This document shows, in pieces, positions 10,679 to 37,019 of a stretch of 37,774 bases of DNA (its first letter is position 1; each line of letters starts with the position of its first letter). Source of the stretch: a virus. The translations under genes were made by a program, and so were the position numbers. The stretch lies in the IMG/VR virus record IMGVR_UViG_3300045690_000033; one strand, given 5' to 3'. The notes beneath the pieces were generated by a model. It saw only the letters and a list, made by a program, of their open reading frames with translations. It was not told the origin of the DNA and did not search any database.

Positions 10679-11053
10679 ATGATTGAAGAATTATTAGAAG
10701 ATTATTCAAAACTAGAATTAAACAATGGGGAGATTGTAACCCTTGAACCGAAGTTGAATTTAAAAAAATTAATGTTAATCAATCGGGATTTCAATACAAA
10801 TGAATTTGCGAAAATGTCTGTAGGCAATGAGCAAATGGATGTCAGTGTCATGCAAGGAGCAAAAGCAGTTTATGTGGCCTACAGACAAGCGAATATGAAT
10901 GAATACATGAGTTTTGATGAATTTATTGATCATTGGTATTTTGATATGGCTCAAGCAACAATGATCTACAATCTCATGATGTTTAAAAAAGTTCAAAATG
11001 ACTACCAGAAAGCTTTTGAGAAGGCAAATAAAGAAAAAAAGCTTCAAAAATAA
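10679..11053 (+). CDS. Tail assembly chaperone (G-like)
   Basis: ATG 10679 after AAAGGGGA. Position is between the major tail protein and the tape measure. Confidence 0.75.
   Translation: MIEELLEDYSKLELNNGEIVTLEPKLNLKKLMLINRDFNTNEFAKMSVGNEQMDVSVMQGAKAVYVAYRQANMNEYMSFDEFIDHWYFDMAQATMIYNLMMFKKVQNDYQKAFEKANKEKKLQK
11035..11041 (+). promoter_or_regulatory. A_AAA_AAG -1 slippery heptamer for the G-T fusion
   Basis: Zero-frame codons AAA AAG at 11036..11041. The -1 frame is open from there into ORF 11056..11247. Confidence 0.7.
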
Positions 11054-11055
11054 AA

Positions 11056-11247
11056 ATGCCAAAATTTCAAGTGAAAACGTGGGTTGATGTCTATTCGATG
11101 TTGACGGACGTTTTTTCTTTGTCTCACGAACAGGCTATGAGTAATTTGCCGTTAGACGACATCCTTCAAATTGCATACAACAAGCAGGCTTATGACGGAT
11201 GGATGAGTTATGCGGTTAGAAAAGAACAAGAGAAAGGAGGAAAATAA
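11056..11247 (+). CDS. T segment of the tail chaperone (expressed as a G-T fusion by -1 frameshift)
   Basis: Lies in the -1 frame relative to G, with no stop between the heptamer and 11056. Confidence 0.65.
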   Translation: MPKFQVKTWVDVYSMLTDVFSLSHEQAMSNLPLDDILQIAYNKQAYDGWMSYAVRKEQEKGGK

Positions 11248-21207: not shown

Positions 21208-21235
21208 TTGAAATGTGATGTGGACTGTATATATT
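21208..21235 (+). promoter_or_regulatory. Candidate csp promoter (TTGAAA-16-TATATT)
   Basis: -35 at 21208..21213 and -10 at 21230..21235, about 75 nt before the ATG. A further extended -10 (TGcTATAAT, 21075..21083) lies upstream. Confidence 0.5.
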
Positions 21236-21315
21236 TAACCGTATTGAAATCCTTTTACTATCAACAATTAATTGCAAAAAAGAACGTACTTGATACGTAT
21301 CAGGAGGAAATATAC

Positions 21316-21516
21316 ATGAATAACGGTACAGTAAAATGGTTTAACGCAGACAAAGGTTTTGGATTTATCACTGGTGAAGATGGCAACGATGTATTTGCAC
21401 ATTTTTCAGCTATCCAAAGCGACGGCTTCAAAACTTTAGAAGAAGGTCAAGCAGTGACTTTCGACGTAGAAGAAGGCCAACGTGGACCTCAAGCTACAAA
21501 CATTCAAAAAGCTTAA
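21316..21516 (+). CDS. csp: Cold-shock protein (CspA family, 66 aa)
   Basis: ATG 21316 after AGGAGG. Sequence [15 protein letters not shown]...DVFAHFSAI with RNP1/RNP2 motifs. Confidence 0.95.
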
Positions 21517-21537
21517 TAAAAATTAGTTGAAATATCG

Positions 21538-21565
21538 GCCGTCTCCTCCTAGGGGCGGCTTTTTT
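21538..21565 (+). terminator. Intrinsic terminator after csp
   Basis: 8-bp stem gccgtctc/ggggcggc (two G-U pairs) followed by TTTTTT. Confidence 0.65.
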
Positions 21566-21638
21566 GTACCCTTAGCTCAGTTGCTTAGAGCAGACGGCTC
21601 ATAACCGTCCGGTCGTAGGTTCGAGTCCTACAGGGTAA
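21566..21638 (+). tRNA. tRNA-Met(CAU)-like sequence; probably the attP core / pseudo-tRNA rather than a working tRNA
   Basis: Cloverleaf is readable: D arm gctc/gagc, anticodon stem gacgg/ccgtc with loop CTCATAA, T arm gtagg-ttcgagt-cctac. However, position 1-72 is a G-A mismatch, the D loop reads GC where GG is conserved, and there is no CCA. Confidence 0.5.
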
Positions 21639-21648
21639 ATAAAATAAA

Positions 21649-30979: not shown

Positions 30980-31233
30980 TGAAAACAGTAAACATCTATG
31001 GCGAAGCTGTCGAGGGTGAGGAAATCGAATACTTAGATGGTCGGCCGTGTAATGTAATCATTTTGCAAGATCAATCTGGTGTGCGGCATGTTGTTCATAA
31101 GGAAACCGCTGACCAGAACTTTAAGCGCAAACCTAGTCGAGCGGGAGTGAGATTCGATCTACTTGGTTGCCAAACGCTTGGACGAAAAGAACTCCAAAGG
31201 AGCAAACGTGGAACCAGTAGAAAATTTTATTAA
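30979..31233 (+). CDS. Hypothetical protein
   Basis: TAATG coupling to the upstream gene. Confidence 0.5.
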   Translation: MKTVNIYGEAVEGEEIEYLDGRPCNVIILQDQSGVRHVVHKETADQNFKRKPSRAGVRFDLLGCQTLGRKELQRSKRGTSRKFY

Positions 31234-32209
31234 CAATGTTGTGCGCCACATGGAAACGGATTTAACTGTCAAACAGCTTCAAAGACTAAAAATAGTTTTA
31301 ACAATGGATGTTTCAAAGTTTCGAATCGAAGAGTCTAAGAACGAAGTTATTATATATGACGAAAGTTCGGATTTAGCCGCATACAAACAATATTTCGTCT
31401 CTCTAAAATTGAGGGGGCTTGCTGACGGAACGATCAATTTAGCCATGCGTACTGTGGACCATTTCAATCGTTACATGCGGAAACCTTTCAAGGAAGTAAC
31501 GACTAACGATATACGGCTATACATTGCAAGTAGGGATATGGAACATCATATATCAAAAGCGACGCTGAATCGTGAGCGTGGGGCCATATGCAGGTTCTAC
31601 AGTTGGTTGTTTGAAGAGGAGTATATTACTAAGAACCCAGCTACACGAGTAGAGTCAATCAAAGTTGAAAAAAGACTCAAAAAGGCATTTACACCAGTAG
31701 AAGTTGAACTGATGCGGAATGCATGTATCAAACCAAAAGAGAAGGCAGTTTTTGAGCTACTACTATCGACTGGCTGCCGAGTGACCGAGCTGACATTATT
31801 ATCGATGGATAACTACGATCAGCAGTCAGGATCAATAACTGTAGTCGGTAAGGGAAATAAGGAGCGCCGTGTTTTCGTGAACGCTAGAGCGAAAGTAGCG
31901 ATCGATAACTATTTGAAAGTAAAGCCACATTTTACGGGTCCAATCATTTGTGGTTTACATGGAGTTGGAACAGGAATGACCGCAAATGGAATTCAGAAAA
32001 TGGTCAAAGAGATATCGAAACGAGCAGGAGTTGCACACGCTCATCCGCACAAGTTCCGAAGAACTGCCGCTACATTTGCTATAAAGCAAGGAATGGAGAT
32101 TAACAATGTCAGAATATTCCTAGGGCACAGCTCGATCAGCACGACACAGGGCTACATTGATGTTAGTGGTATGGATTTCAAACAGATTCATGAGCGATTT
32201 ATCGCTTAA
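31208..32209 (+). CDS. Tyrosine recombinase 3 (XerD-like with N-terminal SAM-like domain, ~333 aa)
   Basis: GTG 31208 after AAAGGAG, in frame with track start 31163. Motifs STGCRVTEL (Arg), HPHKFRRT (H-x-x-R), LGHSSISTTQGYI (His...Tyr). Confidence 0.85.
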   Translation: MEPVENFINNVVRHMETDLTVKQLQRLKIVLTMDVSKFRIEESKNEVIIYDESSDLAAYKQYFVSLKLRGLADGTINLAMRTVDHFNRYMRKPFKEVTTNDIRLYIASRDMEHHISKATLNRERGAICRFYSWLFEEEYITKNPATRVESIKVEKRLKKAFTPVEVELMRNACIKPKEKAVFELLLSTGCRVTELTLLSMDNYDQQSGSITVVGKGNKERRVFVNARAKVAIDNYLKVKPHFTGPIICGLHGVGTGMTANGIQKMVKEISKRAGVAHAHPHKFRRTAATFAIKQGMEINNVRIFLGHSSISTTQGYIDVSGMDFKQIHERFIA

Positions 32210-32224
32210 AAAGGAGACGATTAT

Positions 32225-32467
32225 ATGAAAGGGTACGCAATTAAAGTGATCTTCAGTAGTGGAGACAAGGGATATTTTGAAAGAGTAACGATGAGAAAAG
32301 GAGAAAAGTTAATTGTCATTAAAGAACTTGGAACAAATGACATGAAAGTTTTCAATTCAAAAAGAGATGTTCTAAATCGTGTTCGTGATTTGCAGCGACA
32401 GTTTGGCGCCTCGGCAGATTTCGAAGTCATTTACTCCTACGGTCGTGAAGTTCAAAAGCTCCGGTAA
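32225..32467 (+). CDS. Hypothetical protein
   Basis: RBS AAGGAGA. Its stop codon lies inside linker copy G. Confidence 0.55.
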   Translation: MKGYAIKVIFSSGDKGYFERVTMRKGEKLIVIKELGTNDMKVFNSKRDVLNRVRDLQRQFGASADFEVIYSYGREVQKLR

Positions 32468-32500
32468 CTGGGGCATTAGCGTAGAAAAAGAAAGAAGGAG
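32460..32500 (+). repeat. TCCGGTAAC linker copy G
   Basis: TCCGGTAACTGGGGCATTAGCGTAGAAAAAGAAAGAAGGAG, ending in the RBS of the next gene. Confidence 0.55.
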
Positions 32501-32505
32501 ATTTA

Positions 32506-32739
32506 ATGACAGTAGAAGATTTATTACTAATTATCGGAGATGGTCATCAGGTAAGAGTAAAAAACGAACAAGGAAAAAACGTCACTTATAGCGCAGGATG
32601 TTTACCAGTAAATTACTTTAGCAAAAGAATAGTAGAGGCTCATATTTTAGGTGACTCAAATTACTTGGCAATGTATGACGAAGACAGTCCAGAAAGACTA
32701 GGAGAAGAAATCATAATTGAACTAGTTTTAAAAAAATGA
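32506..32739 (+). CDS. Hypothetical protein
   Basis: RBS GAAGGAG. Confidence 0.55.
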   Translation: MTVEDLLLIIGDGHQVRVKNEQGKNVTYSAGCLPVNYFSKRIVEAHILGDSNYLAMYDEDSPERLGEEIIIELVLKK

Positions 32740-32847: not shown

Positions 32848-32948
32848 TATTAAAGTATAGCACATTGAAAATCAGAATGAAAAAATAAGGCCAATCAGAC
32901 AATTAATAGCTATCTAAACGACGGGAATCAAGGAAGAAGTTGCATAAA

Positions 32949-32973
32949 TAAAAAAGACTCTGCTTTAGAGTCT
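32949..32973 (-). terminator. Intrinsic terminator of the minus-strand moron unit
   Basis: Stem agactct/agagtct with loop gcttt. The A run on the plus strand gives a U run on the minus strand. It overlaps the stop of 32972..33217. Confidence 0.75.
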
Positions 32974-33217
32974 AATTAAAGGACACACTTTGTTCTTTTA
33001 ATTGTTTGATTATCTCAGTGACATAAGCGTCTTGAAAATCTTTACGGAAGGACTTTAGAAATTCCTCAGAAAAGAAATCAAAATTTTTTTCTGAATATGC
33101 TAGCAATTCTTCAGGAGTTTTAAATTCTGCAATAACAGAAGCGCTGTCGAAAGAATCAGCTACGCGCAATGAAACTGATTTCATTAAAGAAACAACATCA
33201 ATTTGTGTTCTTAACAT
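32972..33217 (-). CDS. Hypothetical acidic protein (81 aa)
   Basis: ATG 33217 after GAAGAGGTGA, in frame with track start 33247. Confidence 0.55.
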   Translation of the reverse strand: MLRTQIDVVSLMKSVSLRVADSFDSASVIAEFKTPEELLAYSEKNFDFFSEEFLKSFRKDFQDAYVTEIIKQLKEQSVSFN

Positions 33218-33272
33218 AAAAATCACCTCTTCTGTTGAGTGTAACATAATTGAATAGAACTATCTGAAATTA

Positions 33273-33300
33273 TCCGGTAACCCACGTCAATAAAGGAGAA
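33273..33300 (+). repeat. TCCGGTAAC linker copy B (orphan: plus-oriented inside the minus-strand island)
   Basis: TCCGGTAACCCACGTCAATAAAGGAGAA. No plus-strand start codon follows it. Confidence 0.55.
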
Positions 33301-33308
33301 GCATTAAA

Positions 33309-33506
33309 CTAATCTAATGCTTGTTTAACCTTCATTAGTTCAATATAAAAGGATTTAGAAATAGATTTACCACATTTTTTACAAGCATAATCTCCAGTGG
33401 GAATATCGTTAAAAAACTCTTTTTCATACTCATGATTACACTCTTGCTCTTCTTTTTCTAAGTGCAACTTTCTTAATTCAAGAGAACGTTCTAATTCAAT
33501 GGACAT
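33309..33506 (-). CDS. Small protein with Cys pairs (zinc-ribbon-like, 65 aa)
   Basis: RBS AAGGTGAG. Cys arrangement C-x2-H ... C-x2-C. Confidence 0.55.
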   Translation of the reverse strand: MSIELERSLELRKLHLEKEEQECNHEYEKEFFNDIPTGDYACKKCGKSISKSFYIELMKVKQALD

Positions 33507-33599
33507 AGATACTCACCTTCTGCGAATTATTTTTACCACAAGCAATTTTTTAAGGGGTAAAAAGATAGTTTTAATAAACCAACTAACTCAGTTTATTGA

Positions 33600-33629
33600 A
33601 GAAAAAACACTGAGCAGTTAACTCAGTGT
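33600..33629 (-). terminator. Intrinsic terminator (minus strand)
   Basis: Stem acactgag/ctcagtgt with a 7-nt loop. The plus-strand A6 gives U6 on the minus strand. Confidence 0.7.
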
Positions 33630-33641
33630 AAAAGACAGGAC

Positions 33642-33887
33642 CTATTTAATCATAATTTTTTTACAATTATTCACAGCGCTTTTCATTGTATCAAAACTAT
33701 TGATATCAATGTCGTAGATAAACAGATTCATTTTCATTGATTTGATTTCCTTCAAATTTAAAACGGCAAATATACTTGTAATATTTTTGGATTTAGAATT
33801 ATTGAAATGGGCTTTTTCTAGGGAAGAGTACATTCGATAATTAGAAACATAAACGTGTACAGGATAAAAGTTAATCATTGTTTTCAC
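33642..33887 (-). CDS. Hypothetical protein (78-81 aa)
   Basis: Starts at GTG 33887 or ATG 33878. The frame stays open a further ~50 codons upstream without any ATG/GTG/TTG. Confidence 0.5.
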   Translation of the reverse strand: MKTMINFYPVHVYVSNYRMYSSLEKAHFNNSKSKNITSIFAVLNLKEIKSMKMNLFIYDIDINSFDTMKSAVNNCKKIMIK

Positions 33888-34057
33888 ATCCTCGTGGTAC
33901 TCAATAACTATAACATCAAAAAGCCCTTTAATGTGAATATGAGGAACAACGTAAGTAAAACGTAATAAGGACCATGAAGGATGAATAAAACCAGCTGTTT
34001 CCGCAACTGGCTTAGAGCTAAAATGATGTACTTCGACTGTTTCTTTAGCTCTGCATT

Positions 34058-34066
34058 AGTATAGCA
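34058..34066 (-). promoter_or_regulatory. Extended -10 (TGcTATACT on the minus strand)
   Basis: Plus-strand agtatagca at 34058..34066. Confidence 0.4.
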
Positions 34067-34195
34067 CGTATATTTTTGAGAAGTTTATAAACGTTTTAAC
34101 AAACATCAGATGAGTCGGCTACTCAACCTAGCAATAACATCTGAAATAAGATTTGAAAAATATTGCCAGTGGAGTTGAACTATTGTTCAACATTA

Positions 34196-35134
34196 CTATT
34201 TGTCTTCAATTTCATCAATGAAGGCTGAAATATCATTTTTGAAAATGTACTTACTAAATTGTTCGCTTAGGATATTGCTGACATTTCGGTAAGCAAAGGT
34301 AGGTGTGTTAGGTAAAGTATAGTAATAAATACCATTTTTTTGATAGATGGGATCAGAAACGGTTGTTGTCTGATTTCCTTCAATCGCATTGCCAGCATCA
34401 GCTGCTATATCAATAATAAAGGCACCTATTTTTAATTGAGCCTGCTCTTCAATGGTCATAATGGGCTTGCCCGAATCGCCCACTTCAATGCCATTAATGA
34501 TAATCGAATATTTAGAAAGTTGTTGTTTAAACTGCGGCATTGTTTTTCGATAAAAAAGTTGGACAGAGGAAGAAATTTTTGAGATCGCATGGAAAGCGCC
34601 TTGAGCAGTATTGCCTGAACCTAAAATGGCAATCTCACAATTACTATTTGGTAATAATCCAAAACTCAGGAGTGCATGCAATACTCCGGCATAACCAGCA
34701 TAGAAGCTGTTTTGATAAACGAAGTTTCTAGGAATCAACTGTGTGGGATAAGCATTTTCCTGATAGTACATCATGGGTCTTTGATTATCGATATCAAGAA
34801 TATAGAGATTTTTAGAAATTGCTTGAGTCTCCATAAATTCTTTACCTGATCCCAGTGGATGAGTCCAACCAATAATCATCTGATTTTGACGAATCAAGTC
34901 GTAATCAGATGGTTGGAGGAGTTTGAGAGAGAAGATTCCCTCACAAGAGGCAAAAATTTCAGAACGGGTTAAAATAGTGCAACCTGCTTTTCGATAATTC
35001 TCATCAGGGATACTTAGCGAGTCACCAAAACCATTCTCGATATAAATTGAATTGGCGAATTGTTTGATATGTTCAGGTAACAAAGGGACGCGACGTTCAT
35101 TTGGAAAATTTGACTTTATAAAACCTAATTTCAT
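34196..35134 (-). CDS. AlaDH/PNT-fold NAD(P)-dependent dehydrogenase, N5-(carboxyethyl)ornithine-synthase-like (312 aa)
   Basis: ATG 35134 after GGAGATGG; the track start is TTG 35152. N-terminus MKLGFIKSNFPNERRVPLLPEHI. Rossmann motif ILGSGNTAQGA. The size matches the ~313-aa CEOS type as I remember it. Confidence 0.6.
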   Translation of the reverse strand: MKLGFIKSNFPNERRVPLLPEHIKQFANSIYIENGFGDSLSIPDENYRKAGCTILTRSEIFASCEGIFSLKLLQPSDYDLIRQNQMIIGWTHPLGSGKEFMETQAISKNLYILDIDNQRPMMYYQENAYPTQLIPRNFVYQNSFYAGYAGVLHALLSFGLLPNSNCEIAILGSGNTAQGAFHAISKISSSVQLFYRKTMPQFKQQLSKYSIIINGIEVGDSGKPIMTIEEQAQLKIGAFIIDIAADAGNAIEGNQTTTVSDPIYQKNGIYYYTLPNTPTFAYRNVSNILSEQFSKYIFKNDISAFIDEIEDK

Positions 35135-35271
35135 AATTCCATCTCCATTCAATTTTAGTTTTTGTATAGATTTGTTCTTAGAGAAGTGTTTTGTGACGAT
35201 GTTCTCGTGCTTCTTCAGTCTAACACACTAACACAGTTTTAAGGGGTTATCTTAATTCCCAGAGAAGATAG

Positions 35272-35300
35272 TCCGGTAACGGAGGATACAGAGGAGGTCT
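35272..35300 (+). repeat. TCCGGTAAC linker copy E
   Basis: TAGTCCGGTAACGGAGGATACAGAGGAGG, ending in the RBS of 35303. Confidence 0.55.
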
Positions 35301-35302
35301 TA

Positions 35303-35650
35303 ATGGATATCTCAAATTTTAAAATAATGAATCCTTATCCAGACAAACCGACATTGAGAGTATTGAAAAAAAGTTTGTTGTTCAATGCAGATTTTAAAAA
35401 ATGGCTATCGGATAGCTATGTGACAGTTCGGATTAATTACGATTCAAAACAGATAGCGATTGTAAAAGAAAAAAGCAGCTTACCAGATGAGGCGATAAAG
35501 CCTAAAGAACAGAACAATAGTAACCAAATGAGGATCAACAGTAAAAATTTAGCTGATACGCTCAGAAAAATGTTTGATGTTTCAAAAGAGAGTTTCACAT
35601 TGGAAGGTAACACGTATGACGAGTTTATTATTTTTGAGAAGGTCAACTAA
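35303..35650 (+). CDS. Hypothetical protein
   Basis: RBS GAGGAGG. Confidence 0.6.
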   Translation: MDISNFKIMNPYPDKPTLRVLKKSLLFNADFKKWLSDSYVTVRINYDSKQIAIVKEKSSLPDEAIKPKEQNNSNQMRINSKNLADTLRKMFDVSKESFTLEGNTYDEFIIFEKVN

Positions 35651-35682
35651 CGACGGATATCAAGTAGGAAAGGAAGATATAA

Positions 35683-35853
35683 ATGAAAAAATACATTGAA
35701 GCAAAAATTCAAGGCGATTGGTGCACAATTGATCGAATGGATATTACAGAAACTGCTACTTTTACTATTTACAACGAAAATGGGGAATCGACGGATTTCC
35801 CTATCGATGAGTATGAACTTCGCATCGTTCAGTATGAGGAGAAAGGCGAATGA
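35683..35853 (+). CDS. Hypothetical 56-aa protein, below the track cut-off
   Basis: ATG 35683 after GGAAAGGAAG. ATGA overlap with the next gene. Confidence 0.5.
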   Translation: MKKYIEAKIQGDWCTIDRMDITETATFTIYNENGESTDFPIDEYELRIVQYEEKGE

Positions 35854-36080
35854 AAATTGTAGCAGTCATAAATGATTCAACAGGCCAAATTCAAACGGTG
35901 CTCGATGGATATACACACCGTTTTCCGTATAGTGGAATGCCAACAAAAAATATTGATATTACACGTCAGTACGGTGAAATCGGGGAACATGCGATTGTCT
36001 CAATCGAAATGAATGGTTACGAGCACCTTGTTTCTACAGAGAAATATTCACTTGTTTATGACGAGGAGGACGACGAATGA
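35850..36080 (+). CDS. Hypothetical protein with acidic C-terminus
   Basis: Translationally coupled to its neighbours (ATGA overlaps at both ends). Confidence 0.55.
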   Translation: MKIVAVINDSTGQIQTVLDGYTHRFPYSGMPTKNIDITRQYGEIGEHAIVSIEMNGYEHLVSTEKYSLVYDEEDDE

Positions 36081-36298
36081 TTGCAACAACCATAATTTAT
36101 ACCATAGTCGGCTTCATAGTAGCTGTTATGGGCTATATCTTATTCAATGCAAGTGACAAAAGTGAAAAAGGTTGGCGAGTATTTGGAGCCATTTTGTTTG
36201 TTATAGGAGCTTTTATAATTCTTGGTGCTGAATTAAATCTTTACTTCAATGGGACGCAGGAAGAATTAATAAAGTGGATGTTTTGGATGAAAGATTAG
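36077..36298 (+). CDS. Small membrane protein (two TM helices)
   Basis: Hydrophobic segments TIIYTIVGFIVAVMGYILF and VFGAILFVIGAFIILGA. Confidence 0.6.
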   Translation: MIATTIIYTIVGFIVAVMGYILFNASDKSEKGWRVFGAILFVIGAFIILGAELNLYFNGTQEELIKWMFWMKD

Positions 36299-36330
36299 TT
36301 CCGGTAACCACGCCTATCAAGTCGGAAAGG
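36299..36330 (+). repeat. TTCCGGTAAC linker copy C
   Basis: TAGTTCCGGTAACCACGCCTATCAAGTCGGAAAGG. TTCCG and CGGAA can pair. Confidence 0.6.
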
Positions 36331-36333
36331 TTG

Positions 36334-36552
36334 ATGGGAATGAATAAATTAGAGGAAATCCTCAATAGCCCTGACAAATACAATCTGCCATCGGAAACGA
36401 CGGATGGGCTCAGATCGTTACTGAGAGCCTTTGATACGAATCCGTTCTTTCCAATTGATAGATACGATTACGCCGAAATGCATTTGAGTCGGATGAAGCG
36501 ATTAGGTCAGATTGAAAGTGATCTTATGCGAAGTATTCTAAATGATTTTTAA
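36334..36552 (+). CDS. Hypothetical protein
   Basis: ATG 36334 after GGAAAGG, in frame with track ORF 36274..36552. Confidence 0.5.
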   Translation: MGMNKLEEILNSPDKYNLPSETTDGLRSLLRAFDTNPFFPIDRYDYAEMHLSRMKRLGQIESDLMRSILNDF

Positions 36553-36566
36553 AAGGAGGAACTGGC

Positions 36567-37019
36567 TTGCCCAAAATATTAGATGCTTGTTGTGGTAGTC
36601 GGATGTTCTGGTTTGATAAGGAAAATCCAGATGTAACTTTTATGGATTGCCGTCAGTATTATGAAGAGCTGCCAACAGGTCACGTAATCAATGTTGATCC
36701 AGATATTGTTGCTGATTTTCGGGATATGCCTTTTGAAGATAGTGAGTTCGACATGGTGGTTTTCGATCCACCGCACCTTATTCATGCAGGTGAAAGTTCT
36801 TGGTTAGTAAAGAAATATGGACGACTAGATGAACTTTGGCCAGAAGACATTCGACAAGGTTTCGCCGAATGCATGAGAGTTCTGCGGCCTTCAGGATCAT
36901 TAATCTTCAAATGGAACGAGGACCAAATTCTTCTTTCTGATGTATTGAAAGCGATCGGAGAGCAACCGTTGTTTGGTAATAAACGAAGTAAAACCCATTG
37001 GTTGGTGTTTATGAAATAG
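36567..37019 (+). CDS. Minimal SAM-dependent methyltransferase (150 aa; DNA N6A/N4C-type DPPH motif)
   Basis: TTG start 7 nt after AAGGAGG. Motif-I-like ILDACCGS, motif-IV-like VVFDPPH, and MRVLRPSGSLIF. Confidence 0.65.
   Translation: MPKILDACCGSRMFWFDKENPDVTFMDCRQYYEELPTGHVINVDPDIVADFRDMPFEDSEFDMVVFDPPHLIHAGESSWLVKKYGRLDELWPEDIRQGFAECMRVLRPSGSLIFKWNEDQILLSDVLKAIGEQPLFGNKRSKTHWLVFMK

Follow-up and report, generated by a model that had tools for sequence, protein, structure and literature searches.

N5-(carboxyethyl)ornithine synthase (CEOS), which uses ornithine and lysine as amine substrates and pyruvate as keto acid, is known from the work of Thompson, Miller and Donkersloot. To our knowledge, the Lactococcus lactis enzyme is the only member of the family that has been assayed, and we know of no established physiological role for CEOS, even in L. 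lactis, although the enzyme was described decades ago. CEOS (EC 1.5.1.24) is NADPH-dependent, is present in some L. lactis strains, and also condenses lysine with glyoxylate (PMC8592953). The PDB holds no CEOS structure. Here, we describe a gene of this family, ceo, in a 37,774-nt virus record (IMGVR_UViG_3300045690_000033), the whole of which is referred to as the window. The ceo cassette is a real, rare and mobile metabolic moron, which is taxonomically and biochemically ordinary and represents no new kind of enzyme or system.

The ceo reading frame comprises 312 aa from the ATG at 35134, or 318 aa from an alternative upstream TTG at 35152. Since the homologues share the same MKLG start and a GGAG Shine-Dalgarno sequence precedes the ATG by 8 nt, we take the 312-aa form to be correct. 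The translation starts with MKLGFIKSNFPNERRVPLLPEHI and contains the internal sequence ILGSGNTAQGAF; the 312-aa frame, the N-terminus and the GSGNTAQG loop described in the original prediction are all present in it. Two Pfam domains, AlaDh_PNT_N (PF05222, E 3.8e-17) and AlaDh_PNT_C (PF01262, E 1.1e-13), match the product, both exceeding their gathering cut-offs. Among 5.8 billion clustered proteins, 368 relatives were found, the nearest of which are 96–97% identical, come from Enterococcus malodoratus, E. gilvus, E. hermanniensis and others, are encoded on 42 and 137 contigs, and are already named CEOS. The L. lactis plasmid product shares 56% identity and 73% positives with the phage protein over 307 aa (E 1e-132), the comparison sequence being the annotated plasmid allele, which may not equal the assayed enzyme of strain K1. 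NCBIfam holds no curated HMM specific for CEOS. The family is compact, with 27 of 1.84 billion 50%-cluster representatives matching at E ≤ 1e-30, while AlaDH-type proteins appear near 1e-15.

The AlphaFold2 model of the ceo product (pLDDT 92.2, pTM 0.88) finds its best PDB match in the ternary complex of Mycobacterium tuberculosis alanine dehydrogenase (AlaDH) with NAD and pyruvate (TM 0.76–0.79), and also matches transhydrogenase domain I, at 15–19% sequence identity to the AlaDH structures. This fold and these matches are what an ordinary AlaDH, or a protein like domain I of the transhydrogenase (PntA), mis-assigned as CEOS would give. However, the product scores far below the curated cut-offs of both groups: 61.3 bits against a cut-off of 391.85 for the L-alanine dehydrogenase equivalog TIGR00518, and 52.5 and 31.1 bits against 383 and 444 for the transhydrogenase alpha models NF006942 and TIGR00561. 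Furthermore, it is about 60 residues shorter than AlaDH, its identity to AlaDH structures is low, and a quick maximum-likelihood tree puts phage ceo inside a distinct, compact CEOS clade, apart from AlaDH and PntA, which makes such a mis-assignment extremely unlikely. Phage ceo is thus a further representative of an enzyme family that is already known, here in an unusual and mobile context.

Residues R15, K71, H92 and D246 of the ceo product align with R15, K75, H96 and D270 of M. tuberculosis AlaDH in an alignment made with a 20-member family profile, in which the position of D270 was fixed by the substitution at position 270 of entry 2VHV (D to N in the aligned sequence). Among the 20 family members, R15, K71 and H92 are invariant and D246 is present in 17. 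The prediction of a CEOS-like member of the AlaDH/PNT family is borne out by the Pfam domains, the named homologues at 96–97% identity, the residue alignment and the fold match; the profile and structure searches that had been proposed to settle the subfamily point to CEOS with its pocket residues kept. Downstream of Rossmann strand β2 (residues 191–194), the sequence continues with Y-R-K-T (Y195, R196 and T198), of which R196 and T198 are invariant in the family alignment, and the acidic residue is absent. This segment fits an NADPH signature, and NADPH would be the presumed cofactor.

Taken as an enzyme, the ceo product is probably a CEOS. At 56% identity to the L. lactis enzyme, its substrate preference could be different, and we consider it possible, but unlikely, that it acts on another substrate pair, such as another diamino acid or polyamine, glyoxylate in place of pyruvate, or the lysine of a peptide or cell-wall precursor, so that its product would not be free N5-carboxyethyl-ornithine. 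The reported use of lysine and glyoxylate by CEOS (PMC8592953) speaks for such a shift, as do the neighbours of the E. hulanensis copy (aldo-keto reductase, Old-Yellow-Enzyme and MarR), which suggest reactive-carbonyl or redox chemistry. In contrast, the keto-acid-binding residues and the overall architecture are kept across the family down to 43% identity, and there is no sign of macromolecular substrates.

The window is a temperate siphophage-like, Enterococcus-type phage genome. Its terminase, portal, ClpP protease and capsid are similar to those of Enterococcus phage 4995_1, and are followed by a tape-measure-sized ORF and a lysin region, a minus-strand integrase preceded by a cold-shock gene and a tRNA-Met, and a plus-strand early region with a second tyrosine recombinase and a DNA methyltransferase. 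The cold-shock protein gene and the complete tRNA-Met occupy positions 21208–21640, between lysin and integrase; tRNA-Met is the only Rfam match in the window at the gathering threshold, and other phage records, of Enterococcus and Latilactobacillus, contain the same tRNA-Met (92–97% identity). The idea that these two genes are host DNA lying between two prophages was set aside, as other Enterococcus phage records carry the same tRNA-Met.

Between 31 and 37 kb, where the genes otherwise run on the plus strand, the sole minus-strand block consists of ceo and three small ORFs (Table 1). The flanking genes (31163–32739 and 35303–37019) are both on the plus strand, in agreement with the claim that ceo runs against the surrounding early genes, and the two linker copies between which it was said to lie are the TCCGGTAAC copies at 33273 and 35272. 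The description as a phage-borne moron also holds, with phage genes around it and a −10 element, a Shine-Dalgarno sequence and a terminator recognizable at the level of sequence.

Table 1. Coordinates of the ceo gene, its candidate signals, the accompanying ORFs and the cassette junctions in the window
Feature	Position	Strand	Basis and remarks
Mobile cassette, 2.37 kb, four ORFs and signals	32917..35286	-	blastn, identical end points
ceo, N5-(carboxyethyl)ornithine-synthase-family enzyme (AlaDH/PNT fold), 312 aa	34196..35134	-	ORF and translation; stop included
Shine-Dalgarno GGAG, 8 nt upstream of ceo ATG	35143..35146	-	sequence reading
Candidate extended −10 promoter TGTTAGACT, ~75 nt upstream of ceo ATG	35217..35225	-	conservation
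Intrinsic-terminator-like hairpin and U-run, ~185 nt after ceo stop	33984..34013	-	RNA fold
81-aa ORF, PHROG 37500	33642..33887	-	ORF call and PHROG match; terminator 33629-33607
65-aa ORF, CxxC-type zinc-ribbon-like motif, PHROG 4188	33309..33506	-	ORF call and PHROG match
81-aa acidic two-helix protein	32972..33217	-	SD-preceded ATG 33217; terminator 32973-32955
Linker copy at ceo-proximal cassette boundary	35272..35296	+	exact TCCGGTAAC; copy homology begins at GTCCGSTAACG
Internal exact TCCGGTAAC linker copy	33273..33281	+	within cassette
Degenerate linker-type junction, distal cassette boundary	32909..32942	+	homology stops there

The segment AATGGAG at the Shine-Dalgarno site is invariant in all nine aligned ceo copies. 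Upstream of it, the element TGTTAGACT or its variant TGATAGAAT (the latter in one species) is kept in phage, plasmid and chromosomal copies while the neighbouring sequence diverges, and homology to the chromosomal copies that carry ceo only starts exactly at this element. We therefore read TGTTAGACT, at the level of the consensus, as a putative extended −10 promoter of ceo; a generic promoter scan did not pick it up. Directly upstream of the −10 element, the window carries an 8-bp tandem duplication (TGTGTTAG TGTGTTAG; minus strand, 35217–35240 with the element), which is found in the window copy and in none of the other ceo copies, and which might alter promoter strength.

On the downstream side, RNA folding of 33880–34200 gives a 10-bp stem followed by UUUUAUU, with a z-score of −2.55 for the whole gap, as would be expected of an intrinsic terminator. 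The gap is 94–99% conserved between cassette copies and matches no Rfam family; the only Rfam match in the cassette at E ≤ 1 is a chance match to a miRNA. Positions 33984–34068 (minus strand) contain an extended −10-like sequence, TGCTATACT, followed by two hairpins, the second of which is the terminator, and could specify a small RNA of about 70 nt or simply be the ceo 3′ UTR. A terminator-like site also lies at the end of each small ORF pair.

Comparison by blastn shows that ceo belongs to a 2.37-kb cassette with sharp bounds. It is common to two IMG/VR phage contigs and is also found on E. gilvus plasmid pCR1C and in E. hermanniensis, E. devriesei, E. malodoratus and E. hailinensis genomes, in each case at 95–98% identity, with the same end points in every carrier and flanks unrelated to those of the window; the shared segment is 32917–35281/35286, matching at about 95.5%. 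In the plasmid and the four genomes the backbone is pCR1C-like (VirB4, sortase/pilin, RepA, PemK/MazF), and the immediate cassette flanks match no phage family. One of the two phage contigs (L001) is a different phage, with another portal family, another terminase, a DnaC-like loader and a replication initiator, and carries the cassette in an analogous late-early position, likewise anti-oriented; the integrase of the other (L002) is only 38% identical to that of the window. Identical cassette ends are therefore seen in three phage contexts, representing at least two lineages. CEOS proteins with 97% identity were already named in Enterococcus, and the new element here is the sharply bounded cassette shared by phages and plasmids.

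The cassette ends coincide with a family of short intergenic linkers. The linker TCCGGTAAC occurs in the window in five exact copies, all on the plus strand (32460, 33273, 35272, 36300 and 37021); allowing up to one mismatch, 14 matches are observed against 3.6 ± 2.0 expected, and none of 100 shuffles reaches 14. All five exact copies fall within the 4.6 kb between 32460 and 37029. The distal junction can be aligned both with the linker family and with another junction of the phage itself, at 35633–35682. Since the cassette boundaries coincide with linkers and the plasmid copies retain the TCCGGTAAC linkers, we suggest that the linkers are recombination points for module exchange. Transposon-like mobility was considered and rejected, since neither a transposase nor terminal inverted repeats nor target duplications are present and the cassette ends at linker junctions.

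All three small ORFs of the cassette match PHROG families, and it therefore looks as if the cassette came together in a phage with such linkers and reached plasmids afterwards. The ORF next to ceo is 98–99.6% identical in nucleotide sequence between cassette copies. The 65-aa ORF has weak, sub-threshold zinc-ribbon matches in Pfam and NCBIfam, which yielded nothing else for the three small ORFs. In the E. hermanniensis copy, a 1-nt deletion creates an internal stop in this ORF; ceo remains whole there, and the 65-aa ORF thus appears to be dispensable. For the acidic protein, an earlier 91-aa frame is shortened to 81 aa by the start at 33217, and all homologues have 81 aa; these form 18 clusters, in Enterococcaceae only. 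Its AlphaFold2 model (pLDDT 92.8) shows helices at residues 8–21 and 35–75, and it has no curated family in Pfam or NCBIfam and no usable match in the ESM Atlas. The acidic protein is the oldest partner of ceo, adjoining it in the cassette and also directly in the E. hulanensis chromosome. It is also encoded at 10999–11244 of another analysed sequence (L009).

Relatives of the acidic protein have been named 'toxin-antitoxin system, toxin component' by NCBI, a name that no curated model backs. This name, the three accompanying small ORFs of unassigned function, the moron-island site and the travel of the cassette on phages and plasmids could be taken to mean that ceo is part of a defence, exclusion or counter-defence system, depleting or making a small molecule in conflict, possibly together with the small cassette proteins. 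However, none of the four cassette proteins matched a PADLOC-DB v2 family at E ≤ 0.1, and ceo on chromosomes occurs by itself, surrounded by housekeeping, redox and stress genes. We regard a conflict role as very unlikely. The suggestions in the original prediction of Lys/Orn modification in the cell wall, of exclusion, and of defence or counter-defence signalling found no support; there are no adjacent defence genes, and PADLOC returned nothing.

Outside the cassette, ceo occurs without the small ORFs at a syntenic chromosomal locus in E. xiangfangensis, E. dongliensis and E. pingfangensis, where its neighbours encode SPFH, ClpP, nuclease, thioredoxin, Rex and ABC-F proteins. In E. hulanensis, the 81-aa partner gene directly follows ceo, between the aldo-keto reductase, Old-Yellow-Enzyme and MarR flanks mentioned above, while the E. 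timonensis copy lies beside an IS6 transposase, OpuAC and a pyridine-nucleotide disulfide oxidoreductase on an element with ParA and zeta-toxin. On L. lactis plasmid pIBB109_AgSa_1 (L004, 4025–6933), a general-stress cluster (GlsB/AmaP/DUF2273/Asp23-Gls24) located between IS6 elements immediately precedes ceo in the same orientation; here too, ceo is found with stress genes on mobile DNA. Non-phage copies thus recur beside redox, stress or osmoprotection genes, a weak hint at redox or stress physiology.

In the tree, the cassette alleles group in a single clade (support 99) within an Enterococcus clade (98) to which the syntenic chromosomal copies also belong, and the L. lactis type falls into a sister clade of Lactobacillales. 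On this topology, the cassette allele appears to descend from the ceo lineage of enterococcal chromosomes. The cassette copies of ceo have diverged from one another at a dS of 0.19–0.28 with a dN/dS of about 0.10 and every copy is intact, indicating that the gene has been kept functional. The small-ORF half, in contrast, is 98–100% identical between copies, and the cassette itself is therefore a mosaic.

Viral sequences with ceo are rare. A tblastn search found no homologue in any of 50,697 GenBank phage records, including the related Enterococcus phage 4995_1, and the ceo region gave no megablast match to GenBank phages. Among 2.9 million IMG/VR contigs, three match by pattern scan and family alignment, namely two cassette carriers and one distant relative, and in a library of predicted viral protein structures no phage protein has the ceo fold, the only strong match being a 1,220-aa giant-virus protein. 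The view that such an enzyme is unusual phage equipment is thus well founded.

The distant relative (IMGVR_UViG_3300029267_000620, L017; 4329–7672) encodes a CEOS-family protein with 43% identity that keeps R15, K71, H92 and D246. The gene has a gpA-type large terminase (with a LAGLIDADG insertion) on one side and a lambda-type portal on the other, and two co-oriented DUF6395 genes precede it. It is an independent acquisition by an unrelated phage, and, together with the DUF6395 pair, it could make up a three-gene pathway inside the structural module.

This distribution bears on whether ceo does anything for the phage. A neutral passenger, gained at linker junctions without benefit to the phage and intact through recent transfer and through selection on plasmids and chromosomes, would agree with the extreme rarity of the family in phages, with the recent exchange implied by the near-identical small-ORF half, and with phage copies being fewer than plasmid and chromosomal ones; the purifying selection on ceo may come from plasmid or chromosomal hosts rather than from the phage. 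On the other hand, the window copy of ceo is undisrupted despite its own divergence at low dN/dS, two phage backbones that are unrelated have the cassette in the same kind of place, and an unrelated phage has independently gained a family member. On balance, we think a neutral passenger possible, but unlikely.

We favour, as rather likely, the reading that ceo encodes a functional CEOS-type opine synthase and is a self-promoted prophage moron on a linker-recombining cassette from an enterococcal chromosomal lineage. The reaction would be an NADPH-dependent reductive condensation of pyruvate (or glyoxylate) with free ornithine or lysine at their side-chain amino group, and the product would be N5-(carboxyethyl)ornithine or N6-(carboxyethyl)lysine. 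In the phage, ceo would be an autonomous moron, running against its neighbours and equipped with an extended −10 promoter, a ribosome-binding site and a terminator of its own, and, given these predicted signals, it is most likely expressed from the prophage. Its expression may alter the amino-acid, pyruvate or NADPH pools of the lysogen, so that ceo would serve conversion or fitness, and not replication or the virion; 'fitness gene' is used here as a placeholder. The cassette would recombine at linker-type intergenic junctions of phages and shuttle between Enterococcus phages and conjugative-type plasmids. That the enzyme brings a selectable benefit is argued by three results: a tightly conserved allele on a discrete cassette that moves between temperate phages and conjugative-type enterococcal plasmids, strong purifying selection, and a retained promoter of its own.

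A bolder idea, which we hold to be quite improbable, is that the enzyme and its 81-aa partner form a selfish 'bacterial opine' module shuttled by phages and plasmids, in which the Enterococcus host would be made to turn ornithine or lysine and pyruvate into an unusual amino acid that benefits the element. Possible benefits are a private or protective metabolite, a relief valve for redox or acid stress, or interference with competing phages. If this were true, CEOS would gain a physiological role, and the acquisition by the distant phage would point to a wider, unrecognised opine chemistry in phages. Irrespective of this idea, the 2.4-kb cassette offers a clean genetic handle on the benefit of ceo, and is a well-delimited case of phages and plasmids exchanging a module at short, conserved linkers between genes.

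Compared with known systems, the locus resembles phage morons and lysogenic-conversion genes in being an anti-oriented insert with its own promoter-like and terminator elements that is absent from related phages. What sets it apart is its cargo, an opine-type amino-acid dehydrogenase, which phage collections otherwise essentially lack. M. tuberculosis AlaDH (Rv2780; 2VHW and 2VHX) has the same fold and the same pyruvate-binding and acid-base residues, and, like CEOS, carries out reductive amination of pyruvate. In contrast to AlaDH, the ceo product fails the equivalog model, is shorter by the roughly 60 residues noted above and lacks the acidic residue after β2, and the amine donor is an amino-acid side chain in CEOS and ammonia in AlaDH.

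The chromosomal and plasmid copies of Enterococcus (E. gilvus pCR1C, E. malodoratus and E. xiangfangensis) are much closer, with 80–97% protein identity and the same −10 element and Shine-Dalgarno sequence, and pCR1C-like backbones carry the identical 2.37-kb cassette; these copies reside in a conjugative-type plasmid backbone or at a syntenic chromosomal locus, whereas the copy described here resides in a phage genome. The L. lactis ceo is likewise found on mobile DNA, namely plasmids with flanking IS elements, and is linked to transposon Tn5306. Its product is similar in size (about 310 aa against 312 aa) and shares the two Pfam domains, the R15/K71/H92/D246 set, the GSGN-x-AQGA Rossmann loop and the Y-R-K-T after β2. 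Unlike L. lactis ceo, the phage gene is carried by a temperate phage, lies in a four-ORF cassette, and belongs to the Enterococcus rather than the Lactococcus clade.
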